A DNA stretch of 64,000 nucleotides from Laetmonice hystrix (Eukaryota). The stretch's first letter is position 1; every line of letters starts with the position of its first letter. This document shows, piece by piece, positions 28,641 to 57,244 of the stretch. A program made the position numbers and the translations under genes. The stretch covers positions 24,120,001 to 24,184,000 of the forward strand of contig OZ249436.1 of the NCBI GenBank assembly GCA_965235115.1, read 5' to 3'. The notes beneath the pieces are model-generated. The model was not told where the DNA came from and did no database searches. It worked only from the letters and a program-made list of their open reading frames with translations.

Positions 28641-29310
28641 AGGGGAATGGGCTTTTGAAATTGTCAATGTTAGTGTACACTATTATTATCCCATTGAAAT
28701 TGTCAGGTTTCGTCTTCCTTATTATCATACAATTTCAAAATCCCATTCCCCCAAGGGGGTGAATGGGATTATGAAATTGTATGGTTTCATCTTCTTTTTA
28801 TTATGCCATCCCCCCGATAGGGGGATGGGATCTTAAAATTGTATGGTTTCGTCTTCCGTATCATTTTTTTTTTTTATCCCATTCACCCTTCCTTGTCTGG
28901 TTCCTTGTCTGGTTTCGTCTTCCCTATTATTATTATCCCATCCCCCGTCAGGGGATGGGATCTTGAAATTGTCTGGTTTTGTCTTCCCTATTATTATTAT
29001 CCCATTTCCCTGACGGGGAAATGGGATTTTGATTTTGTATGGTTTCGTCTACACTATTATTATTATTATCCCATTTCCCTGACGGGGAAATGGGATTTTG
29101 ATTTTGTATGGTTTCGTCTACACTATTATTATCCCATTCCCCTGTACAGGGGAATGGGATTTTGAAGTTGTCGTGTTTGCGTGTACTTTATTATCCCATT
29201 TCCACAGAGTGGAAATGGGATCTTGTTGTATGGTTTCGTGTACACTATTATTATCCCATCCCCTACGGAGGGGATGGGATTTAGAAATTGTGTGGTTTCG
29301 TCTTCTGTAT
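28641..29310 (+). repeat. Array of ~10 stacked hairpin 5' boxes of Helentron-associated (HINE-like) elements
   Basis: Units of ~60-70 bp: atcccatYYcc-loop-ggRRatgggat, a conserved ttgtatggtttcgtct-like segment, then (tat)n. Starts at 28688, 28740, 28803, 28876, 28935, 28999, 29068, 29131, 29193, 29253. Confidence 0.88.
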
Positions 29311-32300
29311 TATTTTTGGCGTCGTAGTTGTAGTAGTAGTAGTAGTAGTAAACTTGTATGTCTATCTCAGTCAATTTTCAAAATATCGAAATGAAATTTG
29401 GCACACATCTTGACAATGACGAAGTATGGTCAGGCATCGAATCCTGACGTCATGTGACGTCACGTCATAACGTGATGACGTCAAACGTATTATGAAAATT
29501 GAAGCCATTTTTAAGCTCATATTGGGAATTTTTTTAAAAACCCGTCATGGCCTCATAATCGGCCATAGGTGCTGCCTCAATTTGAGTCTTGATTTGACCT
29601 TTGACCTTTGACCTTAGGGTGAACTGGGTCATTGGTCACAAATCAGTTAAATTGCTTCTCCTTTTCTATTTTTTGGTAAAATTCGACAATATTCGGCAGA
29701 AACACTCTCTAACGAAAGGTTCACAATACGATTCCAAGGATTAGCGATTTGACCTATTTTTACCGAACCACGTGACTTTGAAGTTTGTCACTTTTGACAT
29801 TTTTTTCTAAAACTGCTTTAGTCATATAGGAATCGTGTATTTGGTCAATAGATATGTGCTGCTATTGACGATTGATCACTTTGCATATTTCTTTTCATAA
29901 ATTTACCAATATCTTTTTTATTTATGATGAAATAATGTAATCTGACGTTGACAGGCTCTACCTTAAACCTGTTTAAGATAGCCATATACAAATACAACAA
30001 TTACAAAGTGTATAGATTCAGGTATACCACTGGCTGTTTAGTTCTTGTTTTGGAAAGGTAATATGGCCAGAATTGTAAGTTTTAATGGGTATAGTCTTCA
30101 TAATAATATTTTTGCCGTCTGACTGTTGGCATCTCTGAATACACAGATCTCCCACTGTGATGCGGCCGCCGGTCCCTGGCCAGGCCGGGAGAGAGTTACG
30201 TAAGTGCTGGTGATAAGGGCCGGCCGGCCGGCCTACTCCCCCTCCCTCCCAGTGAGGGAGGAATATGATTGTGTATTCAGGTTCTATCCCCCATGATAAC
30301 TTTCCACGAAATGTTTGGGCAGGGGTTAGGGTTAATATCAGGGATAGGGGTAGGGTAGGGATATGTTTTGGGGAGGTGTAGGAACTGGGGTTAGGGGTTA
30401 GGGGTTAGGGGTTAGGGATAAGGTCAGGGCCATGAATCTTTCCTTTCCACCAAATTTCGTGGAGTTTAAGTTATCATGGGCGATATACCTGTATTCAGAA
30501 CTGACTTAGCTGTGCCTTTGAACTGTAGGTGTAACTGCCTAATGCATTTGTTTTTGAATCTTATGTAGGAGAGCTGAATAAAACAATACTACTGATTGTT
30601 GGTTGTGGAGTTCAAGTGACACGACAAGCTTTTGGTCAGCTGCACTTGGTTTAGCCTGAGCCAACAGTCTGGTGTGGATGACATTCGCACCTATTGGTAA
30701 AGTTTCATGATGTATGACTACGTGTTGGCTAAATGGCGAGAGATAGAAGTGAACGAACGGTGTGCACAGTAGACAGGTATGCAGTCGTCCTGGCGAGCAG
30801 CACACACAATAGATGCAGCAATCACTTGAGCGGGTCTGCGGAAGGGAGAAGGGGAACGCTCTGTGAGAAATACTTAAGGACTGTTTATAGAAGAGGTACC
30901 TTCTCAGTCATATAACATGCCAGCCATAGGGCGGCAGCTCTCAATCAGAGGAGCCGGTCAGGGGGCGGTCAGTTAATTGGACGTGGGCCACCGGCCAATG
31001 ACCAGTGACCATCCTTTAAACTGGGACTGGGGCCAAAACGGGAACGAGGGGATATATGAGAGCACCAAGAGAGAGAGAGAGAGAGACTAGGGGAGAAGGA
31101 GCAGAGAAAGGACAGAGATATAGATTTGTCTATGAGGAACATATAGACACTGACTGCCTAGTGACATATTGGTCGAAGCGGGACAACCGTGTGCCTCAGG
31201 AATAAAAGCTTCAAAACTCAAGCGACGACTCTACTACCAAGAAGAAATGTTAACAAGGGTGAAGAGAAAATTAGCACTGTAATTAGACACATTGAACTGT
31301 TATGTTATGAGGCTATCATTTTTGTATAATACTAAAATATATAGGAAAGCACTTTTCAGTGCACAAGTCAACTTGCCATGGGCAGATGCGCCCAGAAAAA
31401 AATGAGTGCCGGGCGGTAGTTTTCCGCTAGCAGCGAAGGCGCAAGGTTTTCAGTTGGCAAGGGGTGCAGATGGGGAGATATTTTTTCAGATGATAGGCCT
31501 GATAAAAATTCCTGCCGGGCAGCACTTAAACCATTTTAGTTTTGTGCCAGGCGGCTAAAATCGGTGCCGGGTGGCGCCGCCCGGCGCCGCCCGGCGCCGC
31601 CCGGCGTGGGCACATCCCTCTATACCCCCACTCTTTCTTTTTGAAGAATTGACAAAAAATTATTGTTAGGCTAGCCACGGGTCCAGGATTTTCAGCAGAG
31701 GGGTCTCGGGAAATCTTAAAAAATTAAAAGCTCTTATAAAACGATTTTCCGCCTTTTAGGGCCATTTTAGGGCATTATATTTTGTGGATTCATCACTCAA
31801 CTAGTTGAAAATAGCCGGAATGCTTTGCACCTGTTCGTTCCGTGTTGAAGGGAAAAAGAATCTATGTTCTGGCGGAGAATGGGGTCTACCGACACGCGCC
31901 TTAAATACTTTGAGAAACTTTACATCTATCTCCAGAAATAGCGTTTTTTGACCTTCTAAATTCCAGCAAAGAACCTCGATACCTGGATCTGTGCATGCCT
32001 GCGGGAGGAGCATGACGTTATGATGTTATCATTATTTCTTCAGCCTATAACTTGTAAACGGTGCAAGATGGAGCCATGGTTACTATTGAACAGGAATAGG
32101 AAGTCATATACATTGTATGCTCTTTCAATTGACACCAAGATTTATGATGTAATGTATCATTATTATGTCATAATGATGCCATTGACATCTTCGAAGGTTT
32201 CTAAATCCTAAACCATTCAAGATAGAGCAATGGTTACCATTTAACCCTAATAGGAAGTCATATATGATCTTTCACTTGACATTTTTTTAGGTATTTTTCT

Positions 32301-32574
32301 CAGGGCTATAACTTGTAAATGGTAGAAGTTAGAGCTATAGTTACTATTAAACAGTAATAGGAAGTCATATAGCCTACATGCTCTTTCATTTGAGACCAAG
32401 ATTCATTACATAGTATGACGTGTCACCTCATAATTACGTCATTGGCATCTTCTAAAGCTTATAGGTCATTAACTGTGCAAGATCGAGCCATAGTTTACCC
32501 TACTCAGAACATGTCATATATCACGTGACTCCCCGGGGATGGGATCAATTGTGGTATCGCCACAACGTGTCTAG
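29253..32574 (+). mobile_element. HINE-like element A (innermost of the nest)
   Basis: 5' box atcccatcccc; (tag)n; 3' subTIR ggggatgggat 32535-32545, hairpin ttgtgg/ccacaa, ctag end. Confidence 0.8.
30278..30491. mobile_element. Small MITE with internal (ttaggg)-like repeats
   Basis: cagg...cctg ends with longer imperfect IRs (ccatgataac / gttatcatgg); TSD tatt; empty-site versions tgtgtattcagaa at ~45380 and (reverse) ~23430. Confidence 0.8.
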
Positions 32575-32575
32575 T

Positions 32576-34418
32576 TATTATTCTTCCTGTAGTAAGACAA
32601 GGCTGGCCATTCGCTCAGTTTTTAAAGTATCTGAATCGAACTTGGACAGAAGGTTCACCTAGGCAAGGACACCTGGCACCCAGATGCATTACGTCATAGG
32701 ACGTAATTTGGACGTTTTATGACGTAATATTGGCGTTTTTCAGCTAAATTTTGAAGTCGTTTTTCATAGTGCTCTGAGAAGATACTCAAGAAGCGTTAAT
32801 GCCATCTGATGAACATTAAGTCCACTAATAATTTTCTAGGTGAAGTTGACCTGTGACCTTTGCCCTTAGTCGAAATTAGGTCAGAGGTCGGAAAACGCTT
32901 AAAACGTATCTTCTCCCTCAATTTTCAATAAAATTTCACCAAATTGGGCAGAGAGGCTCCTGATAGGAGGGTGCTTAAAAGTTTGGCTGGATTTTTTGAT
33001 TTGACCTAGTTTCACCCTGTCACGTGACTTTAAACATGTGCATATGTTATGTTTGCATAGAGAATATACAATTTTGTATCTATGCAATATCTAAGCAATA
33101 TCTAAGCATATTTTAGACAGGTTTGTTAGCCTGTCATACATAAAACATGTTTCAATTATTTTTTTTTCAGAATTGACCCTGTGACCTTTGACCTTTGGCA
33201 AAATTAGTTGCAATATATGGAATCGCCTGTAACTTGAAAACAAGGCAAAATAAGCCAATAGTTGCTATTAATCAAGTATAGGAAGTCATATATTGCCTTT
33301 CATTTGGCGCCATTTGTACTTCGCTACAGTGACCTTGAAAGGTCAAATCTATGACCTGCATAATTATATTCAATGCTCTGTATCTTGGAAACCGTGCACA
33401 ATAGGCCCATAGTTACTATTAAACATAGATAGGAAGTCATATATGGCCTTTCATTTGGCGCCATTTGTACTTCGCTACAGTGACCTTGAAAGGTCAAATC
33501 CATGACCTACATATATTCAATGCTCTGTATCTTTGAAACCGTGCACAATAGGCCCATAGTTACTATTAAACATGGATAGGAAGTCATATATGGCCTTTCA
33601 TTTGGCGCCATTTTTATTTCTCTGGAGTGACCTTGAAAGGTCAAATTGGTCACCTGCCAATATTCAGAGCTCTGTATCTTGGAAACCGTGCATGCTAGGT
33701 CCATGATTACTGTTAATCATGGATAGGAAGTCATATATGGGCTTTCAATTAGCGCCATCTTTTTTTCTCTGGAGTGACCTTGAAAGGTCAAATTGGTGAC
33801 CTGCCAATATTCAGAGCTCTGTATCTTGGAAACCGTGCATGTTAGGCCCGTGGTTACTGTTAATCATATATAGGAAGTCATATATGGGCTTTCAGTTAGC
33901 GCCATCTTTTTTTCTCTGGAGTGACCTTGAAAGGTCAAATTGGTGACCTGCCAATATTCAGAGCTCTGTATCTTGGAAACCGTGCATGTTAGGCCCGTGG
34001 TTACTGTTAATCATATATAGGAAGTCATATATGGGCTTTCAGTTAGCGCCATCTTTTTTTCTCTGGAGTGACCTTGAAAGGTCAAATTGGTGACCTGCCA
34101 ACATTCAGAGCTCTGTATCTTGGAAACCGTGCAAGCTAGGTCCATGATTACTGTTAATCATGGATAGGAAGTCATATATGGCCTTTCATTCGGCGCCATC
34201 TTTATTTCAATACAGTGACCTTGAAAGGTCAAATCTATGTTCCGCCAATATTCAGATTTTGTATCTTGGAAACGATGGATGATAAGCACATAGGTACTAT
34301 TAAACATGCATAGGAATTAAGTTGAGATGTTTTTTCTTCAATGTCACCTGCCTTTGTTCTTGCCCTCCTATGATACAGGAAATGGGATTTGGTGTTGCCC
34401 AGCAACCCATCGCTCTAG
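32576..34418 (+). mobile_element. Body and 3' end of HINE-like element B (5' box at 29193)
   Basis: 3' subTIR ggaaatgggat 34378-34388, hairpin gttgc/gcaac, ctag end. Confidence 0.78.
33230..34320 (+). repeat. 147-bp tandem repeat, ~7 copies, inside element B
   Basis: gtgaccttgaaaggtcaaa recurs at 33329, 33480, 33627, 33774, 33921, 34068, 34215. Confidence 0.95.
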
Positions 34419-34420
34419 TT

Positions 34421-35546
34421 ATCCCATCCCCCCGATAGGGGGATGGGATCTTAAAATTGTATGGTTTCGTCTTCCGTATTATTCCCGTAGTAGTAGTAGT
34501 AGTAGTTGTAGTAGTTGCTTTTGTGCATACAGCTCAGTCATTGATAAAGATATCCAAATGAAACTTGGCAGGGACATTCACCATGGTAGAGAGAATCGAC
34601 CTCTATAGTTATTACGTCATACGACGTCACGTCATGACGTCATGACGTATTTTGCATTTTAAACTGATAGGCATTTCTTGAAGTCATAATCCATAGTTTC
34701 CCAAAACTTTTCATTGCCTAATAATCGGGCATAGACCCTTTTCACTAATCTTCATTATTTTGACCTTTGACCTTTGACGTCATGGAAAAGTAGGTCATAT
34801 GTCCTAAAGTGGTCAAATTCCTACTCCTGTGCCATTTTTTGAGAAAATATAATACTTTTTGGTGGACAGGTCTTCTGTAGTGAGCTTTATTTGCTCGAGT
34901 CGGGAATAAGCAATTTGACCTATTTTCGCTGTACCACGTGACTTTGAAGTTTGTCACTTTTGACATTTCTTTCTAAAACCATTTCAGTCATTTAGGAATC
35001 GTCTATTTGGTCATTAGATATGTGCTGCTATTGACGATTGATCACTGTGCATAATTCTTTTCATAAATTTACCAATAATTTTTAATTTATGATAAAATAT
35101 ATCTTATCTGACTTTGCAGGCTCTACCTTAAAACTTGTTTAAGATAGCCACATACAAATAGAACAATTACAAAGTGGCAGAGGGGTCTCGGAAATCGAAA
35201 TGAAAATGAAAATTGATGTTGATAGATCACTAATATTATTGAAACAGCTGTAACTCGGAAAGGGGGCCAGGTAGAGCTATGGTTACTATTGAAGCCATAA
35301 TAGGAATATGTTCTTTCAAAAGATACCAAAATCTATGATGTATAGGGTGACGTGTTACATGACAATGACGTCATTGATAGATGACCAATAATAATTATTG
35401 AGGTCATATAGGAAGTAATAATATATGCTCTTTCGATCTACGGGCCTATCGATGACGTGGAGGTAGTCTAACATGATAATGGATCTATGATTTTCATTGC
35501 CAGGGGATGGGATACAAGATGTTGGCCCAAGCCACATCGGCGCTAG
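34421..35546 (+). mobile_element. Complete, uninterrupted HINE-like element (1.1 kb)
   Basis: 5' box atcccatccccccgatagggggatgggat, (tag)n microsatellite, 3' ggggatgggat + hairpin + ctag, flanked by TT. Confidence 0.85.
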
Positions 35547-35547
35547 T

Positions 35548-37143
35548 TATTATTATTATTATTATTGTGGTTGTAAGACAAGGGTCATATCTCAACAAGT
35601 TTTCAGAATATCTCAATGAAACTTGGCCGAACCATAGTTCATGGGCCTAAGAGCTCATATTATTTTGCGTTAAGTCATATGACATACCGTCATGATGTTA
35701 TGACGTCATAAAGACGTTTTTTAAGGGCATGGAAGCTACCTCATCTTCGAGTACCAAGATCATCTAGCCAAAAGTCATTCAAAGCAGAGCCTTACCACTT
35801 AGGGGGCAATAATTTTCTTCATCAGTTTGACCTCTGTCCTATGACCTGTCTGACTTGAAGGTCAAAACATAGATAACAGTCAAAATGTTTCTCCTCTTTC
35901 ATTTTTCGCAGACTCTTCTCTAGCTTTGGTTTATACCTTCTCCATATTGGGGCTGATCGACTGATGCCAAAATTTTTAAAATGTGACGTCATATGACCCA
36001 GTCACCTGACATCAAAATTTGGTTCTTTGGCCGGTGTACCAGAATTAAGTCATAGCTCAACCAGTTTTCGACCGATCCCAATGAAACTTCGTGTGCTTTA
36101 ACAGGGTGGGATGCAGAGCCAAATTTATGCAAATTTATTTCAATGACGTAACAGTGACGTCATCTACCTAATTAAAATAGGACTTCAGTAGTTAAACAGA
36201 TATGATCCTCGATAGCTCAGTGGGTAATACACCCGACATAAAGGCTGAAGATCATGGGTTCAATTCCCACCAAGGGCAGATTTTTTTTTTTCGTTTTTCT
36301 TGTAACAAAGGCTGAAGATCATGGGTTCAATTCCCACCAAGGACAGATTTTTTTTTTCGTTTTTCTTGTCAGACAGTACAGCTCATCTCTTTAAATGCTT
36401 AGGAGGCCTAGGCAGGGGAAATGTTGTCATGGTTTTTTTTTCTTTATTAATTTTTGATATAGAATTGGAGTACTGAGACAGTAGCGGTTTCTAACTCATT
36501 TTTCGAGTTATCTGGATGAAACTTGCAGTAAAAATTGACCACAGGAGGAATTCCTCGACTTATATAATAATACATCATGTGACACCATGACGTCATGAAT
36601 ACATTATGAATAGTGCAACCTGGTACTGCACCAGGAAAAGCTATCCAGAATTCTTTTATGCCATCTTCGTGCCCCTTAGGGGTCTCTAAATGTTAAAATT
36701 CATTTGACCTCTGACCTATGCCATTTGTCAGGTACAGATCACAGGGTTGGAAACAGTCAAAACATTATTTATGTGGAAATGTTTTGACAAAATTGCTCAC
36801 AAAATTAAAACCATTTTTTCTCTGGGGTTATGTGAAAACCAAGGTGTACACCAGTCCCCCAGGAACACTTGATGAACTTCGCAGTCCCATAATCATAGCT
36901 TTTCAAGAAATTCTGCATGATATGGTAACCAGAGCAATCGAAAGTATGTGACGCCGAGCAGTGATCTGTGGAGGCAACCATGGATTCCATGTTGAAGAAC
37001 TCTTTATGGAGGATTAAATCCAGCAAAAATTACCCTTTGCATGCAAGAAATGCAATAAATGTTTTGTTTTAATTCTTCACCATCATGGAATTAACCATTA
37101 ACAGGGAATGGGATCCATTGTTGCCTGCAACAAGCCTGACTAG
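35548..37143 (+). mobile_element. Body and 3' end of HINE-like element C (5' box at 29131)
   Basis: 3' subTIR gggaatgggat 37104-37114, hairpin ttgttgc/gcaacaa, ctag end. Confidence 0.78.
36811..37000 (+). pseudogene. Tc1/mariner-type transposase C-terminal fragment inside element C
   Basis: FFLWGYVKTKVYTSPPGTLDELR..I..AFQEI...MVTRAIESM*RRAVIC...GFHVE matches the segment that follows the SPDL motif in Tc1/mariner transposases. Confidence 0.8.
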
Positions 37144-37145
37144 TT

Positions 37146-40100
37146 ATCCCATTTCCCTGACGGGGAAATGGGATTTTGATTTTGTATGGTTTCGTCTACA
37201 CTATTATTATCCCATTTCCCTGACAGGGAAATGGGATTTTGATTTTGTATGGTTTCGTCTACACTATTATTATTATCCCATTTCCCTGACGGGGAAATGG
37301 GATTTTGATTTTGTATGGTTTCGTCTACACTATTATTATTATTATTCCTGTTGTAAGACAAAGTGTATATCTCGGTCACTTTTTAAGATAGCAGGTTGAA
37401 ACTTGCAGGGAGGGTTCATCATGGGATGAAGATCTGTGCATATGAAGCAGGACTTCATGCGACGTCATGTCTTGGTTTTATGACGTCTCAAACACGTCAC
37501 ATGGAGCATCAATTTATCAACTCCCAACACAAAACTACTGTTACTTGGGGAAATATTGGTTATAGATCCTCTTCGTGGATGGTTCTCTAAGATACTTGTT
37601 CCATAACTTGACCTTCGATCATTACCCTTTCTGAGATTCGGGTCAAAGGTCACAATATGGTTAAATCCTTACTACTCTCTCATTTTTATGAAAATCTTGA
37701 CCAAACCACTTCTGGATGTTCCTAGTGGATAGCTTAAAATTGTGGGGCCGTTGTTTAGCGATCGGACCTTTTTTCACTGAATCACGTGACATCAAAGTTT
37801 GATTTTTTGGTCAGTTTACCAGAAATCGGTCATATCTCTGGCAGTTTTTAACAGATCTTAATGAAACTTGGTAGGCTTAAAGAGGATGGGATGCTGAGCT
37901 AGATTTATGCAAACTTTTTTCTGTGACGCCACTCTTTTGTGTCATGAAGTCATCCACTTAATTCAAATAGGACCCAGGTACCTCTATACCCGTGAGTCTC
38001 AATAGCTGAGTGGGTAGCATGCCCGACTTAAAGGCTGGAGATCATCGGTTCGAATCCCACCAAGTACAAAAACTTTTTTCTCATTTTTCACACTCTGAAA
38101 ACCAAAGCACCACCAGGCAGCATATGAGGCCTTGTCACAGTCATAGTTATGAAATGTTTTGACATACATGGTTCTCAAAGATAAAGTTTACCAGAAATCG
38201 GTCATATCTCTGGCAGTTTTTAACAGATCTTAACGAAACTTAAGAGGATGGGATGCTGAGCTAGATTTATGCAAACTTTTTTCTGTGACGTCACTCTTTT
38301 GTGTCATGACGTCATCCACCTATTTCAAATAGGACCTAGGTACCTCTACAAGCGTGAGTCTCAATAGCTGAGTTGGTAGCATGCCCGACCTAAAGGCCGG
38401 AGATCATGGGTTCGAATCCCACCAAATACGGAATTTTTTTTTCTCATTTTTCAGACTCTGAATACCAAAACACCAGCAGGCAGGATATGAGGCCTTGTCA
38501 AAATCATAGTTATGACATATTTTGAAATACATGGTTTTCAGAGATAATTTTCCCATAACTTAACCTCTGTTAATTACCCTTTCTGAGATTTGGGACAAAG
38601 GTTCCAGGACTGACAGTGACAGTAAAACCAAGATGGCAGAGTGGTAAGGCTATGGGCCACTTTAGTTACTTGATAGCATACGAATGGCACCTGGCGTTTT
38701 CCTCATGACGTCCGGAGGAAATGGGATTAGTGTATTGCTTGCAATCATGATGTCTAGTTATTATCCCATTTCCCTGACGGGGAAATGGGATTTTGATTTT
38801 GTATGGTTTCGTCTACACTATTATTATTATTATTCCTGTTGTAAGACAAAATGTATATCTCGGTCACTTTTTAAGATATCAGGTTGAAACTTGCACGGAA
38901 GTTCCATCATGGGATGAAGATCTATACATATGAAGCAGGACGTCATGCGACGTCATGTCTTGGTTTTATGACGTCTCCAACACGTCACATGGAGCATCAC
39001 TTCATCAACTCCCAACACAAAACTACTGTTACTTGGGGAAATATTGGTTATAGATCCTCTTCGTGGATGGTTCTCTAAGATACTTGTTCCATAACTTGAC
39101 CTTGGATCATTACCCTTTCTGGGATTCGGGTCAAAGGTCACAATATGGTTAAATCCCTACTACTCTCTCATTTTTTTTAAATTCTTGACCAAACCACTTC
39201 TGGATGTTCCTAATGGATAGCTTAAAATTGTGGGGCCGTCGTTTAGCGATCGGACCTTTTTTCACTGAATCACGTGACATCAAAGTTTGATTCTTTGGTC
39301 AGTTTACCAGAAATCGGTCATATCTCTGGCAGTTTTTAACAGATCTTAATGAAACTTGGTAGGGTTAAAAAGGATGGGATGCTGAGCTAAATTTATGCAA
39401 ATTTTTTTCTGTGACGTCACTCTTTTGTGTCATGACGTCATCCACCTATTTCAAATAGAACCTAGGTACCTCTGCACACGTGAGTCTCAATAGCTGAGTG
39501 GGTAGCATGCCCGACCTAAAGGCTGGAGATCATGGGTTCGAATCCCACCAAGTACAGAAACTTTTTTCTCATTTTTCACACTCTGAAAACCAAAACACCA
39601 CCAGGCACGATATGAGGCCTTGTCACAGTCATAGTTATGAAATGTTTTGACATACATGGTTCTCAAATATAAAGTTTACCAGAAATCGGTCATATCTCTG
39701 GCAGTTTTTAACAGATCTTAATGAAACTTAGTAGGCTTAAAGAGGATGGGATGCTGAGCTAGATTTATGCAAACTTTTTTCTGTTACGTCACTCTTTTGT
39801 GTCATGACGTCATCCACCCATTTCAACTAGGACCTAGGTACTTCTATAGCAATGAGTCTCAATAGCTGAGTGGGTAACATGCCCGAACTAAAGGCTGGAG
39901 ATCATGGGTTCGAATCCCACCAAGTACAGAAACTTTTTTCTCATTTTTCAGACTCTGAATACCAAAACACCACCAGGCAGGATATGAGGCCTTGTCACCC
40001 TCATAGTTATGAAATGTTTTCACATACATGGTTCTCAGAGATAATTTTCCCATAACTTGACCTCTGTCAATTACCCTTTCTGAGATTTGGGACAAAGGTT

Positions 40101-43100
40101 CAGGACTGACAGTAAAACCAAGACGGCAGAGTGGTAAGGCTATGGGCCACTTTAGTTTAGTTACTTGATAGCGTACGAATGGCACCTGGCGTTTTCCTCA
40201 TGACGTCCGGAGGAAATGGGATTAGTGTATTGCTTGCAATCATGATGTCTAGTTATTATTTATTATTATTCCTGTTGTAAGACAAGGGGTATATCTCCGT
40301 CACTTTTCAAGATAGCAGGTTGAAACTTGCAGGGAGGGTTCATCATGGGATGAAGATCTGTACATATGAAGCAGGACGTCATGCGACGTCATGTCTTCGT
40401 TTTATGACGTCTCAAACACGTCACATGGAGCATCAATTTATCAACTCCCAACACAAAACTACTGTTACTTGGGGAAATATTGGTTATAGATCCTCTTCGT
40501 GGATGGTTCTCTGAGATACTTGTTCCATAACTTGACCTTGGATCATTACCCTTTCTGAGATTCGGGTCAAAGGTCACAATATGGTTAAATCCTTACTACT
40601 CTCTCATTTTTTTGAAAATCTTAACCAAACCACTTCTGGATGTTCCTAGTGGATAGCTTAAAATTGTGGGGCCGTTGTTTAGCGATCGGACCTTTTTTCA
40701 CTGAATCACGTGACATCAAAGTTTGATTCTTTGGTCAGTTTACCAGAAATCGGTCATATCTCTGGCAGTTTTTAACAGATCTTAATGAAACTTGGTAGGC
40801 TTAAAGAGGATGAGATGCCGAGCTAGATTTATGCAATTTTTTTTCTGTGACGTCACTCTTTTGTGTCATGAAGTCATCCACCTATTTCAAATAGGACCCA
40901 GGTACCTGTATACCCGTGAGTCTCAATAGCTGAGTGGGTAGCATGCCCGACCTAAAGGCTGGAGATCATCGGTTCGAATCCCACCAAGTACAAAAACTTT
41001 TTTCTCATTTTTCACACTCTGAAAACCAAAACACCACCAGGCAGGATATGAGGCCTTGTCACAGTCATAGTTATGAAATGTTTTGACATACATGGTTCTC
41101 AAAGATAAAGTTTACCAGAAATCGGTCATATCTCTGGCAGTTTTTAACAGATCTTAATGAAACTTAGTAGGCTTAAAGAGGATGGGATGCTGAGCTAGAT
41201 TTATGCAAACTTTTTTCTGTGACGTCACTCTTTTGTGTCATGACGTCATCCACCTATTTCAAATAGGACCTAGGTACCCCTACAAGCGTGAGTCTCAATA
41301 GCTGAGTGGGTAGCATGCCCGACCTAAACGCTGGAGATCATGGGTTCGAATCCCACCAAATACCGAAATTTTTTTCTCTCATTTTTCAGACTCTGAATAC
41401 CAAAACACCACCACGCAGGATATGAGGCCTTGTCAAAATCATAGTTATGAAATGTTTTGACATACATGGTTTTCAGAGATAATTTTCCCATAACTTGACC
41501 TCTGTCAATTACCCTTTCTGAGATTTGGGACAAAGGTTCCAGGACTGACAGTAAAACCAAGATGGCAGAGTGGTAAGGCTATGGGCCACTTTAGTTACTT
41601 GATAGCATACGAATGGCACCTGGCGTTTTCCTCATGACTTCCGGAGGAAATGGGATTAGTGTATTGCTTGCAATCATGATGTCTAGTTATTTATTATTAT
41701 TCCTGTTGTAAGACAAGGGGTATATCTCCGTCACTTTTCAAGATAGCAGGTTGAAACTTGCAGGGAGGGTTCATCATGGGATGAAGATCTGTACATATGA
41801 AGCAGGACGTCATGCAACGTCATGTCTTCGTTTTATGACGTCTCAAACACGTCACATGGAGCATCAATTTATCAACTCCCAACACAAAACTACTGTTACT
41901 TGGGGAAATATTGGTTATAGATCCTCTTCGTGGATGGTTCTCTAAGAAACTTGTTCCATAACTTGACCTTGGATCATTACCCTTTCTGAGATTCGGGTCA
42001 AAGGTCACAATATGGTTAAATCCTTACTACTCTCTCATTTTTTTGAAAATCTTAACCAAACCACTTCTGGATGTTCCTAGTGAATAGCTTAAAATTGTGG
42101 GGCCGTTGTTTAGCGATCGGACCTTTTTTCACTGAATCACGTGACATCAAAGTTTGATTCTTTGGTCAGTTTACCAGAAATCGGTCATATCTCTGGCAGT
42201 TTTTAACAGATCTTAATGAAACTTGGTAGGCTTAAAGAGGATGGGATGCCGAGCTAGATTTATGCAAATTTTTTTCTGTGACGTCACTCTTTTGTGTCAT
42301 GAAGTCATCCACCTATTTCAAATAGGACCCAGGTACCTGTATACCCGTGAGTCTCAATAGCTGAGTGGGTAGCATGCCCGACCTAAAGGCTGGAGATCAT
42401 CGGTTCGAATCCCATCAAGTACAAAAACTTTTTTCTCATTTTTCACACTCTGAAAACCAAAACACCACCAGGCAGGATATGAGGCCTTGTCACAGTCATA
42501 GTTATGAAATGTTTTGACATACATGGTTCTCAAAGATAAAGTTTACCAGAAATCGGTCATATCTCTGGCAGTTTTTAACAGATCTTAACGAAACTTAATA
42601 GGCTTAAAGAGGATGGGATGCTGAGCTAGATTTATGCAAACTTTTTTCTGTGACGTCACTCTTTTGTGTCATGACGTCATCCACCTATTTCAAATAGGAC
42701 CTAGGTACCTCTACAAGCGTGAGTCTCAATAGTTGAGTTGGTAGCATGCCCGACCTGAAGGCCAGAGATTATGGGTTCGAATCCCACCAAATACCGAAAT
42801 TTTTTTTTTCTCATTTTTCAGACTCTGAATACCAAAACACCCCCAGGCAGGATATGAGGCCTTGTCAAAATCATAGTTATGAAATATTTTGCCATACATG
42901 GTTTTCAGAGATAATTTTCCCATAACTTGACCTCTGTCAATTACCCTTTCTGAGATTTGGGACAAAGGTTCCAGGACTGACAGTAAAACCAAGATGGCAG
43001 AGTGGTAAGGCTATGGGCCACTTTAGTTACTTGATAGCATACGAATGGCACCTGGCGTTTTCCTCATGACGCCCGGAGGAAATGGGATTAGTGTATTGCT

Positions 43101-44550
43101 TGCAATCATGATGTCTAGTTATTATTATTATTATTCCTGTTGTAAGACAAAGTGTATATCTCGGTCACTTTTTAAGATAGCAGGTTGAAACTTGCAGGGA
43201 GGGTTCATCATGGGATGAAGATCTGTGCATATGAAGCAGGACTTCATGCGACGTCATGTCTTGGTTTTATAACGTCTCAAACACGTCACATGGAGCATCA
43301 ATTTATCAACTCCCAACACAAAACTACTGTTACTTGGGGAAATATTGGTTATAGATCCTCTTCGTGGATGGTTCTCTAAGATACTTGTTCCATAACTTGA
43401 CCTTGGATCATTACCCTTTCCGAGATTCGGGTCAAAGGTCACAATATGGTTAAATCCTTACTACTCTCTCATTTTTTTGAAAATCTTGACCAAACCACTT
43501 CTGGATGTTCCTAGTGGATAGCTTAAAATTGTGGGGCCGTTGTTTAGCGATCGGACCTTTTCTCACTGAATCACGTGACATCAAAGTTTGATTCTTTGGT
43601 CAGTTTACCAGAAATCGGTCATATCTCTGGCAGTTTTTAACAGATCTTAATGAAACTTGGTAGGCTGAAAGAGGATGGGATGCTGAGCTAGATTTATGCA
43701 AACTTTTTTCTGTGACGTCACTCTTTTGTGTCATGAGGTCATCCACCTATTTCAAATAGCACCCAGGTACCTCAATACCCGTGAGTCTCAATAGCTGAGT
43801 GGGTAGCATGCCCGACCTAAAGGCTGGAGATCATCGGTTCGAATCCCACCAAGTACAAATTTTTTTTTCTCATTTTTCACACTCTGAAAACCAAAACACC
43901 ACCAGGCAGGATATGAGGCCTTGTCACAGTCATAGTTATGAAATGTTTTGACATACATGGTTCTCAAATATAAAGTTTACCAGAAATCGGTCATATCTCT
44001 GGCCGTTTTTAACAGATCTTAACGAAACTTAATAGGCTTAAAGAGGATGGGATGCTGAGCTAGATTTATGCAAACTTTTTTCTGTGACGTCACTCTTTTG
44101 TGTCATGACGTCATCCACCTATTTCAAATAGGACCTAGGTACCTCTACAAGCGTGAGTCTCAATAGATGAGTTGGTAGCATGCCCGACCTAAAGGCCGGA
44201 GATCATGGGTTCGAATCCCACCAAATACAGAATTTTTTTTTCTCATTTTTCAGACTCTGAATACCAAAACACCACCAGGCAGGATATGAGGCCTTGTCAA
44301 AATCATAGTTATGAAATATTTTGACGTACATGGTTTTCAGAGATAATTTTCCCATAACTTGACCTCTGTCAATTACCCTTTCTGAGATTTGGGACAAAGG
44401 TTCCAGGACTGACAGTAAAACCAAGATGGCAGAGTGGTAAGGCTATGGGCCACTTTAGTTACTTGATAGCATACGAATGGCACCTGGCGTTTTCCTCATG
44501 ACGTCCGGAGGAAATGGGATTAGTGTATTGCTTGCAATCATGATGTCTAG
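37146..44550 (+). mobile_element. Five near-identical ~1.43-kb bodies of HINE-like family D plus four 5' boxes
   Basis: Boxes atcccatttccctgacggggaaatgggat at 37146, 37209, 37275, 38763; bodies end ggaaatgggat..attgcttgcaat..ctag at 38757, 40252, 41686, 43118, 44550; each has an internal ~360-370-bp direct repeat. Confidence 0.92.
37996..38068 (+). pseudogene. tRNA-like (pseudo-tRNA) sequence; two per family-D unit, 10 copies in 37996-44230, related copy at ~36207
   Basis: A-box tagctgagtgg and B-box ggttcgaatcc at tRNA spacing, T-run downstream; acceptor and anticodon stems pair poorly. Confidence 0.7.
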
Positions 44551-44565
44551 TTATTCTTTGCGTTG

Positions 44566-44570
44566 TAGTT

Positions 44571-44616
<46 letters not shown>
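44566..44616 (+). repeat. (TAG)n microsatellite at the start of a further HINE-like body
   Basis: ~15 tag units after the last ctag end; following sequence resembles 29310-29800 and 27960-28240. Confidence 0.9.
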
Positions 44617-44617
<1 letters not shown>

Positions 44618-45407
44618 TAGACATTTCGTTCTATCTCAGTCATTTTTCAAGATATCTCAATCAAATTTGGCTCAGATCTCGACCATGACAAAGTCAGGTC
44701 ACACAATCAATCATGACGTCACGTCACGTCACGTCACATTATGACGTCATGACGTCAAACGTGTCTTGCACATTGGGGCCATTTTTTTAAAAGTCATATT
44801 CGAAATTTTCAAAACCCATCATGGCGTTTTAATTAGGCAAGGGTCCTGTCTCAAGTTGACCCTTCATTTGACCTTTGACCTTTGACCTTAAGGAGGACTG
44901 GCTACTGGGTCAGAATCGGGTTGAATCGCTACCCCTTCCCCATTTATGGGAAAAAATTGACAAAATCTGGCAGTACCCCTCTACATCGAAAGCTTTAAAA
45001 CATACAAAGAGGGATTAGCGATTTGACCTATATTTACTGAACCACTTGACCTTAAAGTTTTCAACAGTGGTCAGCATTACGTAACTGCTGCTGATAAGGT
45101 CGGGAGGTGACTCCCCCATTCCTCCCAGTCAGGATGGGTTGATGTTGATGGACCCTTGTGCTGGGAACAGACTTAATTGAATAGCTGGGCATTTGTATTT
45201 ATATAAAACTGTAGGTATTACTGTCTAATATATTATATTCTTGAATCTTATATTGGAGGAGAGCGGAATAAAACAACACTGATGATATTAAGCCGTCTTC
45301 TTGAACTTAAGAGAGAATTCTTAGCCAGCTGCACCCTATATTTTCCTCCCAGTCAGGGTGGGGTTGGAGGAATGTGATTGTGTATTCAGAATACACAAAG
45401 TGACAAT

Positions 45408-46625
45408 AGACCATTTTCCGAACTACTACTAGCGCCACCTACAAGCTCCCTAGCGACGCCAAAGTCGGTGCAAGCGCACCGCGTTGCTAGCGCTTGGGCA
45501 ATAGGGAACAATGAAGAAAGAGGTGTTGAGCAAATCTGGGATTTTGAGTTTCTCCGTGTCAATATGAGCAGTTCGGGGTGGCCAGATTAATAAAACAATG
45601 GGGGTGACACGATACAGTAAATTGGAATGTCGGTAACAGGCAGAAATAACTTTTAATCGCGGTGTGAAGTTGAACGGTCATAACGTTGACTTGAGCGATA
45701 TTAGCAACATAAAGACACCTGACAGTCGGGAACATTTCGATACTGACCATTAAATGCCAGGTAACAAGCACTGTTCGTATGGAACATGTGAAAGTGACAG
45801 TAGACATGGGGCAGGAAACAGTAAACCAAGGCCATCCATGGATGATGTCAGGTTTTTTACCTTTCTGGGACCCGTCCGACAGACAGAGAGGAGGGCCTAT
45901 GTGTAAACCCGCATATAAAACTCCCATAATGTGTAAAAATTCTGCCCGTAGACTCTATGTAAAAAATCTTCGTTCCCCCAGTAGGCCTATGTAAAATTCT
46001 GCCGGTATAGGGGCCTAGGCTAGGCCTATGTAAAATTGATTTTTACCCGTAGGCCTATAGATCTATAGGGCCTAGGCTATGTAAAATATCTCCCCTTAAA
46101 TGTAAAACATTACCGCCGAATATAAAATTGAGAAATGAACAGCTGGTTCATGCGTCAATAATAATAATACATTATAAATTAATAAACTAATAATTAATTT
46201 GTTTTGGTCATGATGGCATCCCGCAAACGAAAACCTCCTGGTGAATGCCTACCCCTTGCACCTAAACAAGCGCGCCGGCCACCCGCGGCGCTTGACCCCC
46301 GCTAGAGGCCTGTCCCCAGCCCGTGTATGTCAGCTCGCTGCTGTCGATCGGCAATTCGAGGTCCGAAACACAACTTCATAACTCTACCAGTGACGCTTTA
46401 TTATACCCAAAAATAGTCACACGACGTTCTTGGAGGGATGATCGTAGTAGGGGGACGGTCCAAGTTTCGAAAGATTCCATTTTGCAAGGTTTTGTGAGCA
46501 GTTCAAAATCAGCTCTCTCGAGTGATTGTCCGTAGGTTAACACTAGCGAACGCTGGTAGTCAAGCAGGTGCTTGCCCCGTGTTTCAAAACGAGGCAGCAT
46601 AGCAACCCGCGACGGAAAACGGTCT
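45408..46625. mobile_element. Non-autonomous DNA transposon, ISL2EU/Harbinger-like
   Basis: TIR agaccattttccg / cggaaaacggtct; AT on both flanks; empty site gtgacaatctgccatagg at ~48471. Confidence 0.75.
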
Positions 46626-49215: not shown

Positions 49216-52200
49216 CCTAATCATTTTCCTGATGGTCGAAATACAATAACAGAAAACAGGCAGCTGGAGCTCTCGCCATCCAAATATTTCCAAGGTAGAT
49301 TGATGAATGTTGACAATCGATTCGCAAAAGACCCTACATATTTTTTGCGCTTTACATCACAGAGTTAAGGTTTATTTCAAGCAATATATCAACTGCACTA
49401 AAGGAAAGGTCAAAAACGAACTAAAGATGGTAGAAAGATCACAGCAGGTACATTATCAGAAAGAAAGGGTATAGATCATGTCACTGGAGAAGATACAGGC
49501 TTCCGACATTTCCCTACTTTGAAAGGTTCACCAGATTACTTGAAACAGACTCAGCACGATTTATTTGCAATGATCAGACAGCTAGGCATTCCCACATTCT
49601 TTGCCACTTTTAGCTGTAACAATGATTGGCCTGAAATCGTTACTGCTATTAAAGCACAACAGGGTGAAACAGTTGATGTTGACTCCTTGTCGTGGGAGGA
49701 GAAGTGCAACATTCTCGCATCAAATCCAGTCACATGTGCTCGAATGTTTGATCATCGTGTTAAACTTTTCCTACACACGGTCCTTTGGTCTCCTACTAAA
49801 CCCATAGGTGAAATTATTGATTGGTTCTACCGTGTTGAATGGCAAGCACGAGGAAGTCCTCATATACACTGTTTATTCTGGGTAAAAGATGCTCCTGTTA
49901 TAGACAGAGATTCAGACCAAGCTGTGTGTGATTTTATTGATCGATACGTCTGGTGTCAAATTCCTGAAGAAGATTTAAATCTGCGTGAAAAAGTAACACA
50001 TTACCAAAAGCACATTAAAAACCACAGAAAGAGTTGCAAAAAGGGTAATCGTCCATGTAGGTTCAACTTCCCTAAACCTGTTTCAAAGAACACCTTTATC
50101 TCAAGACCTGCAACTATGACTGATGGTCAAGTTCCAAGCAAAGCAGAAATGCAATCAGCGTCAGAGGAACTGTCTGCTGTTAGACATTTGATGAATCAAA
50201 AAGATCAGGACGAAAATATGTCCATAGATGAGGCCTTGCAAAAAGAGGGAATTGCTTGGGAAAGATATAGAAGGTGCTTTGATGTTGCAACAAAGAAGGT
50301 GTCCATTGTAATGAGACGTGAATTGAAAGATTGTTGGACTAATCATTATAACCCTTCTCTACTTGACATTTGGAATGCAAACATGGATATCCAATACATC
50401 ACTGACCCATACAGCTGTGTCATGTACATTCTTTCTTACATAAGTAAAGCTGAACATGAACTTTCTGAAATTCTACGTAACGCCCAATGAGAGCTCAGAG
50501 AAGGCAATATAGAATTCAAAAAAGAAATGAGAAAACTTGGAAATGTGTACCTCAATTACCGAGAAGTGAGTTGTCAAGAAGCTGCCCATCGCATGTGTAA
50601 CCTTCATTTGAAAGAGTGCTCACGTGCAGTGGTTAACCTACCTGTCAATGAGAATGCTACAAGATTGAGCCTCCCATTGGCAAAGATTGAAGCAAAGGCA
50701 AAAGAAAATGAAAACGATGACGACATTTGGTTTAAAAACATCATAGATAGATACCAAGCCCGACCTGATGGTGAACAATTTGATAATATGTGTCTTGCTC
50801 AGTTTGCTTCTGAATATAGGATTGTTTATACAAAATCGCAAAATACAATACAGTTAAAAGGCAATTCTGGTATGATTCAAAAAAGGAGGAGTGAAAACTT
50901 TACAGTGATTTGATACCCGAGACATTCCAAGTCGAATAAGCCAGAATTGTTTTATCAAAGTCAACTAAAAGTGTACTTGAAGTGGAGACTTGACTTCAAT
51001 GTCAATTAAGGCCTGTCGGATATGTGACATATGAGGAGTTTTATGACAGTGGAGCAGTCAGATTGTCCAAGGGTCATGCCAATAAGACGGTTAAAACAAT
51101 TGTATCAGACAACCGGTTAAGATATGAAAAAGATGCTGATGTGTTGGATAATGCTTGGGAAATGCTACAAAACTCTGAAGGTCTAGAAGATGTTTGGGCT
51201 AGTGTTTCCATTGAAGCTGAAATGAGTAGACTAGACGCAGAAAGAGAAAGTCAAGCATTTCAGGAACAATTTGACGAACCATTGACAAACGATCATGATT
51301 ACATTGCTGATGAGTCACGAGGTCAGGTGCCAGGAACTCTTGCTATCGATCACAGTGATGATGGGTGTGTCACCAAAGCCGTCAAACTAATGTTGAAAAG
51401 TATGAATAAAAAACAGCAACAGATATTTTACACCATTCGAAAGTGGTGCCTTGAAAAAGTGAACGGTGCACGTCCTGAGCCGTTTCGAATATTGCTTAAT
51501 GGTGCTGCAGGTAAATCTTTACTGATCAAATGTATCTATTACGAGGCCACTAAAATTCTTCTACAGCAACAAAGTGACCAGAACCTGCCACCAGTATTAT
51601 TGACGGCTACTACAGGTTTAGCTGCTTTTAATGTTGATGGATGCACTGTTCATTCCTTGCTGAAAATAATTAAACCGCGTAAAGGACAATACCAACCTCT
51701 GTCCGAAAATGTACTCAACACCATGACTACAAACTTACGTGAAATGAAAATACTTGTAATTGATGAAATTTCAATGATGGGAAACCAGATCCTTGCGTAT
51801 GTGCACAAACGACTGGGGCAACTGAAGCATAACAAGGAATTGTTTGAAGGAATTTCGATTCTAGCTGTTGGTGATTTTTACCAGCTTCCACCCATAAGAG
51901 CAGGTTCACCGATTTGTGTTCCAAATACATGTGACTTGTGGATGGACAATTTTCAGTCTGTTCAACTAACAGAAATCATGAGACAGAAGGATGATGCAGC
52001 CTTTGCCTCGCTCCTCAATAGACTAAGATTAAAGCAAAAGAAAGCAAACTTGACCAATTCTGACAGAGAGACATTGTTGTCATGGGTCACACCTCCTGAA
52101 AACTGCCAACAGGATGCACTGTATATTTATGCAAGGAACAAAGAAGTCGATAATCACAACGAATCCATGCTGCAAAACAAATGCACTACTATTTCAGAAA

Positions 52201-53423
52201 TTATTGCTGTCTGGTAAAACTGGTAGACTAGAGGAAAGACAGGTCTCTAAATCTAATCAAAACGATGGTCTTCCCAGTAAATTAAAAATTGCTGTTGGGG
52301 CAAGAGTGATGGTGACAAAGAATATTGACACCGAACATGGCATTACAAATGGCGCCATTGGAACTATAACAGCAATATTGCCTCCATTACAGGGTAAACC
52401 GTTACCTGCAGCAGTCTGTATCAAGTTTGATAACAATGTTGGCCGAAGGTTGATAGAAAAAAAGAAAAACGCCACCGTTCCATTTGGTTCAGTGAAAGTA
52501 ATGCCGTATGAAGAAAAAATGGATCCTGTAGAACAAGAGAGAAAGGGAGCAATCCGAAAACAGTTTCCCCTGAGGTTGGCATGGGCGTGTACCATACATA
52601 AAGTTCAAGGTCTTACTGTGGATAAAATTGTTATTTCCATGAAGTCTATGTTCGAATCAGGACACGCTTATGTTGCTTTATAATGAAGATAAAATTTATC
52701 GAAATGACGGGGTTGCAGATGGTTTGGAACTGATGACCCAACTTGATCTGTCGAGTCCTCGTGAGAATGAGGATGGTAGACTTACTGTCGTCCATCACAA
52801 TGTTGAAGGATTGGCTCAGAATTTTGAAGGTTTAGCAAATCATTTCCAGATTTTTAATTCAGACATTATGTTACTATCTGAAACTTGGCTTTCTTCAACT
52901 GGACATTTAACAAATTTCCAACACCCAGATTTCTACCTCTTGACTAAACTGAGAAAAGATAGTTACAATATACAGTCCACTGGAAAAAGGTGGTGTAGCA
53001 ATTTATGTGAGGAAAACCATTGAACACTGGGGTCTTGTACTTTCTGTTACAAACCTAGAGTTTCTTCCACAAGTTGTGAGAATAGGTGATAAAATATATG
53101 TAGCTTGTGTTGTATATAGACCGGCAAGATACTCTACAACTTTGTTTTGTCCCACGCTACAAGACATGGTAACTCGTATGGAACAAACAATCCCGAATGC
53201 TGGTTATATAATTACAGGAGACTTTAATGAGGATTTAATGAAAGACCAGAACACAATAAAGAACCTAATGACTCATAATGGTTACCAACAAATAATGACC
53301 GAAGGAACCACACTTGGAAACACATTGTTAGATGTCATTTATGTGAAAAATGTTGACTTCAAGACATGTGGTGTCTTGCAAACCTTTTACAGTTATCATG
53401 ACGCAGTATTTATGCAAATTTGA
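49216..53423 (+). pseudogene. Helentron (Helitron2-type) Rep-Pif1 helicase-AP endonuclease polyprotein, 5'-truncated and decayed
   Basis: Rep: PTFFATFS, YRVEWQARGSPHIHCLFW (HUH), YILSYISK. Helicase: damaged Walker A GAAGKS, IDEISM, GDFYQLPP, QFPLRLAWACTIHKVQGLT. APE: HHNVEGL, LSETWL, TGDFNED, YSYHDAV. Confidence 0.93.
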
Positions 53424-57107: not shown

Positions 57108-57244
57108 TTAACTGGCTGGCTTGTGATTTAGCTAGATCATTAATTAATAGCTGCAGAGCAAGTACGGTGGAATGTTTGGAGCGGAACCCAAACTGTTTAG
57201 CATAAATACTGTTATGTTTCTCAAAGAAATTACTGAGTCGAGAG

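Follow-up and report, generated by a model that had tools for sequence, protein, structure and literature searches.

Multi-layered nesting of probable non-autonomous Helentron-type transposons at a fixed internal site in Laetmonice hystrix

HINE/DINE-1-like elements carry subterminal inverted repeats of 11-13 nt, an inverted repeat at the 5′ end, a microsatellite behind this 5′ block and a 3′ stem-loop, and they insert at TT (PMC4067079); central tandem repeats are present in some copies, and coding capacity is absent (PMC4067079; Thomas, Vadnagara and Pritham 2014; here and below, published work is reported from its openly accessible main text). Elements that look like non-autonomous Helentrons of this type are stacked in a 64,000-nt stretch of the Laetmonice hystrix genome (assembly GCA_965235115.1, contig OZ249436.1, positions 24,120,001 to 24,184,000 of the forward strand; hereafter "the window"), and this stack, which starts at window position 28,641, is the subject of the present analysis. 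An original prediction, made from the letters of the window, had read the locus as a last-in-first-out stack that records the order of its insertions; its observation is confirmed here, and its interpretation is partly supported.

Several related systems provide points of comparison. In Fusarium oxysporum, non-canonical Helitrons have their first 73-85 nt repeated before a single 3′ end (Chellapan et al. 2016, PMC5148889), and the model advanced for them is self-insertion close to the 5′ end, after which a copy is made that starts at the leftmost 5′ end and stops at the first 3′ end (PMC5148889). Helitron tandem arrays that arise through bypass of the termination signal are described from bat, silkworm, and plant centromeres (cited in PMC4067079 and PMC5148889). 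The oyster element Cg_HINE and the clam element DTC84/pearl consist of a left module (subterminal inverted repeat, inverted repeat, and microsatellite), central satellite-like repeats, and a right module (subterminal inverted repeat and palindrome) (PMC7492417, PMC3879986), and a 2025 review mentions complex oyster Helitron loci produced by insertion, deletion, tandemisation, and recombination, its accessible text being without the nesting grammar set out below (PMC12628747). Finally, the TinT approach uses the question of who sits inside whom to order the activity of repeat families (PMC3014933).

We conclude that the region is very probably a stack of non-autonomous Helentron-type (HINE/DINE-1-like) rolling-circle transposons that was built by repeated insertion of element into element at one fixed place. 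Nesting, the pairing of element ends, the constant position and phase of the junctions, and the genome-wide frequency of the pattern are direct observations. The order of heads and bodies was taken from the assembly (627 Mb, 35 contigs), in which the window is part of contig C1.

Heads and bodies in the window

Between 28,641 and 29,310, head units of about 62-69 nt each are stacked head to tail. A unit begins with (T)TATCCCAT and 4-5 further nt, continues with a loop of 4-8 nt and a complementary arm that ends in ATGGGAT, and is completed by a spacer of about 27 nt (...TTGAAATTGTnTGGTTTCGTCTTCC-like) and a short (TAT)n. The original prediction had counted about ten such boxes, with their bodies in reverse order; layout and reverse order stand, and the count becomes 11 units, eight of which keep the hairpin (28641, 28690, and 28877 are decayed, as read by eye). 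A regular-expression scan placed the boxes of this head array at 28742, 28937, 29001, 29070, 29133, 29195, and 29255, and further boxes downstream at 34423, 37148, 37211, 37277, and 38765; only five other look-alikes, all scattered, occur on the + strand of the 64 kb, and the minus-strand rows mirror the same palindromic boxes. Folded as single-stranded DNA, two 5′ boxes gave -14.2 and -15.6 kcal/mol (z -5.7 and -6.9), values that none of 200 shuffles equalled.

The usual annotation of such an array is a tandem repeat, and head arrays are prone to be mis-called as minisatellites; Tandem Repeats Finder reports a 69-bp repeat with 6.4 copies and 75% match. A true minisatellite, formed by slippage or unequal crossing-over of a 62-69-bp unit and matched by the bodies through coincidence, would agree with this call and with the presence of two identical D boxes, but is highly improbable, as the units come from several families, each can be aligned to the head of an intact element, the corresponding bodies follow downstream in mirror order, and the observed pairing was never reached by shuffles.

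Nine 3′ ends (ATGGGAT...CTAG), all on the + strand, were found by regular expression at 32539, 34382, 35507, 37108, 38721, 40216, 41650, 43082, and 44514; they have the form GGnnATGGGAT, a 5-6-bp stem-loop, and CTAG, and each is followed by TT and then by residual TAT that leads into a headless body, by another box, or by another element. A tolerant annotator, applied to 28,001-46,000, read 13 boxes and nine ends as (((((((( ) ) ( ) ) ((( ) ( ) ) ) ), in which 9/9 ends pair, last in first out, with a box of matching arm. Given a double D head (see below), the parse is free of conflict: C( Ddouble( E( b9( A ) K ) [D4( D3( D1 D2 ) )] ) ... (letters denote families). The stack is at least six layers deep, with six families represented among the layers of the window, and it extends past 44,550, where it had originally been predicted to end; a C-type body at 44,553-45,074 closes the box at 28,935.

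Only three kinds of 11-nt repeat occur in the window, and pairing was therefore tested by aligning intact copies from other loci. An intact E copy (L021:566-2222) aligned with its positions 1-64 to 29,131-29,194 (100%) and with positions 61-1657 to 35,547-37,143 (98.2%). For b9, positions 1-65 of an intact copy (L023_24:9009-11060) aligned to 29,193-29,254 (90.8%, with the loop inverted), and two overlapping pieces of its body, 62-1804 and 852-2052, aligned to 32575-34316 (94.3%) and 33214-34418 (94.8%), respectively. These split alignments bear out two joins that had been proposed from the window, i.e., of box 29131 with the body at 35548-37143 and of box 29193 with the body at 32576-34418. 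An intact C copy (L016:363-2629) likewise split into 1-66, aligned to 28,935-29,000 (98.5%), and 74-549, aligned to 44,589-45,074 (90.9%). Thus, three hosts have been opened within their own (TAT)n, where other elements now take up about 3.3, 6.4, and 15.6 kb, in mirror order. At the centre, an A copy (L020:366-2585) aligned with positions 1-972 to 29253-30233 (94.5%) and with positions 2159-2220 to 32513-32574 (100%), the middle part of the A element in the window being unlike this copy.

With regard to family D, the two boxes at 28,999 and 29,068 agree over 134 nt (100% identity) with the double head found in a D element at L019; that element has a single body behind two boxes spaced 69 nt apart, and its flanks on both sides are non-element sequence. 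The two boxes of the window are accordingly the double head of one D element. The expectation that both would belong with D bodies holds in that a D body closes them, with the correction that one double head shares one body (D5). The window contains six D boxes (28999, 29068, 37146, 37209, 37275, and 38763) and five D bodies. The element at 34421-35546 proved intact, as predicted; it is of K type, its box-to-end pairing recurs as the outer pair of a further locus (L022x), and, like the D cluster at 37,144-43,118, it entered a residual microsatellite as a sibling insertion. The b9 body includes a 147-bp repeat in 7.2 copies, and the C-type body is broken off near 45,074 by unrelated repeats or insertions.

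The HINE/DINE-1-type anatomy proposed for these elements was recovered in full, as all structural hallmarks in the list given by the main text of PMC4067079 are present. Subterminal inverted repeats lie near both ends, as judged by the 11-nt match between arm and 3′ repeat in 56 pairs; a short palindrome near the 3′ end takes the form of a 5-6-bp stem between 3′ repeat and CTAG (two ends folded, of 17 end types); and intact copies carry (TAT)2-12 behind the 5′ block. No open frame of at least 250 aa was found in 19 sampled loci or at 28-46 kb of the window.

Two side observations concern the elements themselves. The loop of the b9 hairpin is reverse-complemented between identical arms when 29,193-29,221 is compared with L023_24:9009-9037, as is expected from hairpin or cruciform flipping. 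Segments that resemble tRNA (acceptor/T-arm-like, ...GGTTCGAATCCCACC...) occur in the E body (36,200-36,370) and in every D body (e.g., 37,990-38,070); ARAGORN called no tRNA in them.

Pairing statistics and landing site across the genome

Genome-wide, 3,673 strict hairpin boxes were counted (reversed control, 0), and 2,114 of these (57.6%; control, 0) have the ATGGGAT of another element 28-50 nt upstream; among the first 100 such junctions listed, 71 run from box to box and 29 stand directly after a 3′ end (hand count). The pattern CTAGT(N0-18)TATCCCATnnCC occurs 914 times, compared with 30 times in the control. Box-to-box and end-to-box junctions are very dense at G000:C1:23.4-26.0 Mb, and the window lies inside a large cluster of these elements. 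The bare 12-mer TATCCCATNNCC was rejected as a box count, its 43,505 matches being mostly an unrelated satellite with a period of about 870 bp; in this satellite (e.g., at G000:C1:373,000-510,000, which includes L037 at C1:373000-375000, and at 2,454,000-2,465,000), the 12-mer (TATCCCATCCCC) stands beside a (GAAA)n run and without a hairpin arm, and the satellite may be derived from a different HINE-like 5′ end.

Arrays were sampled from the first 100 boxes (20 regions plus two extensions; 22 of 23 arrays, one apparent near-duplicate being omitted) and, together with the window, yielded 29 innermost and 27 outer last-in-first-out pairs. For 16 of the 27 outer pairs, the combination of box and end is also seen in an intact innermost element, a figure that shuffling of the ends did not approach (mean 3.4, maximum 10 in 10,000). 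Nine outer pairs have box types that are never innermost in the sample, yet these are self-consistent (for example, e8 ends go with H boxes at three loci, and e12 ends with I boxes in three cases). When head arms are compared over 11 nt with the reverse complement of the paired 3′ repeat, 50 of 56 pairs show no mismatch and the other six show one; mismatches in the outer pairs total 3, compared with a shuffle mean of 29.2 and a minimum of 15. Even the rare arm variants (ACGGGAT, AAGGGAT, ATGGGCT, and GGTGAATGGGAT) each pair with their own end. At L033x, a closed stack of four different families, (((()))), stands between non-element flanks, and of the stacks with their outer end inside the fetched DNA, eight of nine are balanced. 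An assembly artefact, in which repeats were collapsed or mis-joined, might be suspected in so highly repetitive a region; we consider it very improbable, given that the same grammar closes at many independent loci with unique flanks and that the junction sequences are family-specific.

The position at which guests land is narrowly defined. From the end of the host hairpin to the ATCCCAT of the guest, the distance is 34 nt in 13 of 27 junctions (range 31-43), and 65 of 67 box-to-box spacings fall into a 3-nt series (34 at the shortest, then 18, 7, 3, 2, and 1; hand count); insertion is therefore in TAT phase and biased to the hairpin-proximal units. Where hosts keep 4-6 TAT units after their guests, the first guest sits after unit 1 or 2 in 6/6 cases. 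A second favoured spot is T^T straight after a resident 3′ end (CTAG|TT), which gives siblings inside one host. At natural 3′ ends, 29-30 nt separate ATGGGAT from the end of CTAG in 47 of 58 cases, a distance close to the approximately 30-34 nt from hairpin to landing site. Guests share the orientation of their host (58 same-strand ends and one doubtful opposite-strand end), because (TAT)n has TT on one strand only. Insertion at TT is seen in eight closed stacks with non-element flanks, the outer flank ending in T before ATCCCAT and starting with T after CTAG; with intact paralogues as empty sites, three hosts show only a 0-4-nt overlap of T/TAT, i.e., no target duplication.

Part of this pattern would also be expected if the box were not recognised at all and (TAT)n merely offered a dense, one-stranded TT target, with nesting resulting from ordinary TT preference and regional clustering. 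Insertion between two Ts of T-rich sequence is reported for Helentrons and HINEs (main text of PMC4067079), the junctions are in phase with TAT, and the one family without (TAT)n behind its box, F, is struck less often (15 of 166 boxes, compared with roughly 41% for boxes of the other families). We nevertheless regard this explanation as unlikely. Of about 46 (TAT)>=4 loci in the first 9.4 Mb of C1, no more than about eight are at known boxes (hand count), yet a TAT repeat is found at 1 of 24 outermost 5′ flanks; hosts with 5-6 residual units were always struck after unit 1 or 2; the F family is struck at the same distance (ccttat|t, 31 nt from the hairpin) without a microsatellite; and 65 of the first 100 end-to-box junctions listed are exactly the zero-spacer form CTAGTTATCCCAT (hand count). 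Plain (TAT)n is insufficient to explain the pattern. The proposal that the (tat)n behind each 5′ box serves as a landing pad for any family accordingly survives in part: the site is used by many families, and family F is struck there without the microsatellite.

In the mechanism that we propose for the stack, a newcomer inserts at T^T about 30-34 nt downstream of the 5′ hairpin of a resident, in most families within the short (TAT)n, and splits its host into a head of about 62-69 nt and a headless body. When the newcomer is itself struck in its head region, the split is repeated, so that heads accumulate on the left and are closed, in reverse order, by bodies on the right. The hairpin's right arm has the sequence and the orientation of the 3′ subterminal repeat, and both hot spots are found some 30-34 nt beyond GGnnATGGGAT, in the downstream direction of one and the same strand; a head with its spacer would thus look to the transposase like a 3′ end with a cut site about 30 nt off, and the enzyme may dock on resident ends. 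Nested composites may sometimes be re-copied via alternative ends, which would give double-headed or two-bodied elements.

That the 5′ box is a built-in landing pad which mimics the element's own 3′ end, with targets chosen by docking on resident ends, is put forward as a tentative, sequence-based suggestion. Bacterial HUH single-strand transposons such as IS608 and IS91 have targets that resemble their own end, the enzyme using end-type recognition for the target. Purely structural targeting, in which the AT-rich run melts beside the hairpin, is possible as well. If true, 3′-end mimicry would provide one rule for both hot spots, behind the head and after the tail, and would amount to a safe-harbour strategy that spares host genes.

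Composite forms, relative age, and the candidate coding partner

A minority of forms depart from simple nesting. Two heads with one body are found at L019 and in D5 of the window; L021 and L023_24 carry an extra headless body of the same family as its neighbour, i.e., one head and two bodies; L020 and L027_34 each hold an A-in-A dimer in which the outer element is one common 3.38-kb variant (the two outer bodies are 96.9% alike); and three-box D heads recur on other contigs. The multiple-5′-termini form (two or more copies of the first ~70-85 nt before a single 3′ terminus) was seen for the D element only, most arrays being balanced nests. Such exceptions would result if copying of a nested pair began at the outer 5′ end and stopped at the first 3′ end, or began at the inner 5′ end and read through the first 3′ end; where two identical heads stand side by side, the loss or gain of one would account for them just as well. 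Since double-headed and two-bodied elements exist, a layer is not always one event at this locus and may arrive pre-assembled. At G000:C3:5,605,161-5,642,676, six matches to the three-box D head lie about 7,465 bp apart, in a tandem block that contains the head array.

These forms bear on a further explanation, namely that much of the stack did not form layer by layer at this locus but from pre-nested composites that were copied as units (outer 5′ end with a later 3′ end), or spread by segmental duplication, and that the box order in the window records events elsewhere. All of the departures listed above speak for it, including the identity of the two double-headed D elements over 134 nt and the 99% identity of three-box D heads on another contig (including L002), and such forms are predicted by the Fusarium model as set out in the main text of PMC5148889. 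As an account of much of the stack we hold composite copying to be possible but rather unlikely: the best non-self match of the outer array (28,641-29,000) in the genome reaches 81%, and the array is therefore not a duplicated block; the six families among the layers of the window each match independent intact copies; (TAT) lengths at the junctions vary between loci; and a first nested insertion would still be required.

With regard to time, the topology implies that inner elements came later than outer ones. The claim that the box array lists insertions in time order is thus upheld by the nesting and qualified by the double D head and by the siblings at 34,421 and 37,146, which are missing from the array. 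A rise in divergence from inner to outer elements, which had been predicted, was not seen among the five D bodies, whose identity to the majority columns of 14 copies is 99.0 (D1), 95.9 (D2), 98.2 (D3), 98.4 (D4), and 98.9 (D5). As old, diverged donors can be copied in late, these values neither support nor refute the order. The single sign of age comes from the head array, where decay or alteration affects the four leftmost units and unit 28,877, the other six being intact. Identities of the layers to arbitrary intact copies (94.5, 94.3, 98.2, and 90.9%) were dropped as a clock because they are not monotonic and depend on the comparator.

Several points weigh against repeated insertion at a fixed place, or against parts of it. 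The order of heads and bodies has the assembly as its sole source, and for the four leftmost head units no bodies were identified in the window or in the 40 kb beyond, where a single further + strand end lies 10.2 kb downstream of the window's right end. Two of the 27 outer pairs conflict in family (L021 and L023_24), and one closed stack, L019, is unbalanced. The A-in-A dimers share their outer variant at two loci, and, since composites recur with the same architecture, junction counts overstate independent events. The outermost D copy is not the most diverged, and an inner-to-outer gradient is absent. Two 3′ stem-loops, folded alone, were no better than shuffles (z -1.6 and -0.7). The step of 3′-end mimicry has a common sequence and a similar distance as its whole basis. 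Finally, no autonomous Helentron with ATCCCAT-type ends was found; one intact relative of the broken gene described below has neither a box nor a matching end within 1.9 kb upstream and 2.6 kb downstream.

Outside the stack, the window contains a broken Helentron-type transposase gene (Table 1), which is context and at most a candidate partner of the stacked elements. Pfam matches at 49.4-53.4 kb are to Helitron_like_N (1.4e-31), PIF1 (5.8e-17), and Exo_endo_phos (2.2e-05). Its endonuclease piece has 150 matches in the genome (54-96% identity; e.g., G000:C2:38434360-38434806), many of them inside open frames of 2,800-3,600 aa, which suggests many lineages and possibly live elements; as more than 100 Helentron frames are long and open, the system may be active to this day. 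In the flanks of the intact relative, no shared inverted repeat or hairpin was found, and on its 3′ side the broken gene is homologous to this relative across tandem repeats as far as 55,317, where no element end could be recognised. These tandem repeats, of about 190-270 bp, occupy 53,420-55,317 downstream of the broken gene and are common to the intact relative on C2.

Further side observations concern the surroundings. Directly upstream of the head array, a partial C-like body (27,957-28,689) runs into the right arm of unit 28641, of which the left arm is missing, as if the sequence from a 3′ repeat to the identical right arm of the following head had been deleted. The palindrome of unit 28740 outgrows the usual arms (28,728-28,790), the spacer sequence being present inverted on the left side. 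Beyond the broken gene, a long AT-rich stretch on the minus strand (55,400-59,300) was taken by eye as a retroelement remnant, and an array of ~330-bp units with tRNA-like ends (60,000-62,200) was likewise read by eye.

Table 1. Coordinates of stack components and of the neighbouring gene in the window
Feature	Position	Strand	Basis
Outer part of the head array, five 5′ units; no bodies identified for them; no near copy of the combination elsewhere	28641..28934	+	read by eye and annotator
Unit, truncated, right arm only	28641	+	by eye
Unit, collapsed hairpin	28690	+	by eye
Unit, J-like, extended palindrome	28740	+	
Unit, K-like, one arm mutation	28807	+	
Unit, hairpin lost	28877	+	by eye
C-type 5′ box (hairpin, 27-nt spacer, (TAT)n); head of the body starting at 44,553	28935..29000	+	L016 split alignment
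Double D-type box, head of D5; identical heads 69 nt apart	28999..29132	+	L019 identity
E-type 5′ box; head of the body at 35,547-37,143	29131..29194	+	L021 split alignment
b9-type 5′ box; head of the body at 32,575-34,418; loop inverted relative to other copies	29193..29254	+	L023_24 alignment
Innermost complete A-type element: box, (TAT)2, body, 3′ repeat, stem-loop, CTAG	29253..32575	+	L020 alignment
Headless b9-type body: residual (TAT)2 start; GGAAATGGGAT, stem-loop, and CTAG end	32576..34418	+	
Intact K-type element; sibling insertion straight after the previous CTAG, inside the (TAT)n of the E host	34419..35546	+	
Headless E-type body: (TAT)6 start; GGGAATGGGAT, stem-loop, and CTAG end	35547..37143	+	
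Nested D cluster; boxes 37146, 37209, and 37275 first	37144..43118	+	
D1 body	to 38,757	+	
Intact D2	38,758-40,252	+	
Headless D3	to 41,686	+	
Headless D4	to 43,118	+	
Headless D5 body; closes the double box at 28,999-29,132	43119..44550	+	
First ~520 nt of headless C-type body, residual TAT start; closes box 28,935	44551..45074	+	
Broken Helentron-type transposase gene (Rep, PIF1 helicase, AP-type endonuclease), several frames, 5′ part missing	49402..53420	+	Pfam

Comparison with described systems

The elements of the stack share with HINE/DINE-1 elements the subterminal repeats, the hairpin, the microsatellite, the central repeats, the stem-loop, the TT target, and the lack of coding capacity, and their modular layout is the same as that of Cg_HINE and DTC84/pearl. 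The microsatellite is TAT here, in contrast to GTCY in the elements of PMC4067079. The main text of that paper describes a TT/T-rich preference and neighbouring Helitrons, without a fixed landing site inside an element or ordered stacks; in the accessible texts on the oyster and clam elements, the role of the microsatellite is left open (PMC7492417, PMC3879986). For the choice of targets by Helentrons, "between two Ts" is all that is known; a landing site that the element itself carries at a fixed place, if true, would be a concrete and testable rule and would suggest a possible role, in this lineage, for the long-puzzling DINE-1/HINE-type microsatellite.

Tandem arrays formed by termination bypass are similar in that they run head to tail in one orientation, and the direct CTAG|TT|box junctions are like theirs. 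Such arrays are repeats of one element, complete or 3′-truncated, whereas here families are mixed and heads stand apart from bodies; bypass was rejected as an explanation for the window, where six families have their heads split off from the bodies and adjacent elements are of different families. TinT, in turn, is statistical and works over random retroposon nestings (PMC3014933), whereas the nests described here are site-specific and have several layers at one locus. Only where composites have been identified beforehand would the bracket structure of a stack yield the relative order of insertion for many families at a single locus; headless bodies, by the same token, are prone to be mis-called as truncated copies.

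Ordered multi-family stacks at a fixed site behind the 5′ end are not described in the openly accessible main text of PMC4067079, PMC12628747, PMC7492417, PMC2374699, and PMC13085455, nor in that of PMC5148889, PMC11136912, PMC3879986, PMC11417382, and PMC6947457, and the word "nested" is absent from the oyster, clam, and 12-Drosophila papers. The view that such nesting had not been described before is thus sustained for the stacks as such and has to be tempered by the partial precedent of self-insertion in Fusarium (PMC5148889). The double-headed D element fits the Fusarium model; the Fusarium report, in its main text, has one nested case and infers the rest, whereas full nests with their bodies are present here, with many families, at least six layers, a constant distance from the hairpin, and over half of all boxes directly behind another element. 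Within the openly accessible literature, the repeated 5′ termini of Fusarium are hence the nearest precedent, and the ordered stacking of many families appears to be new.

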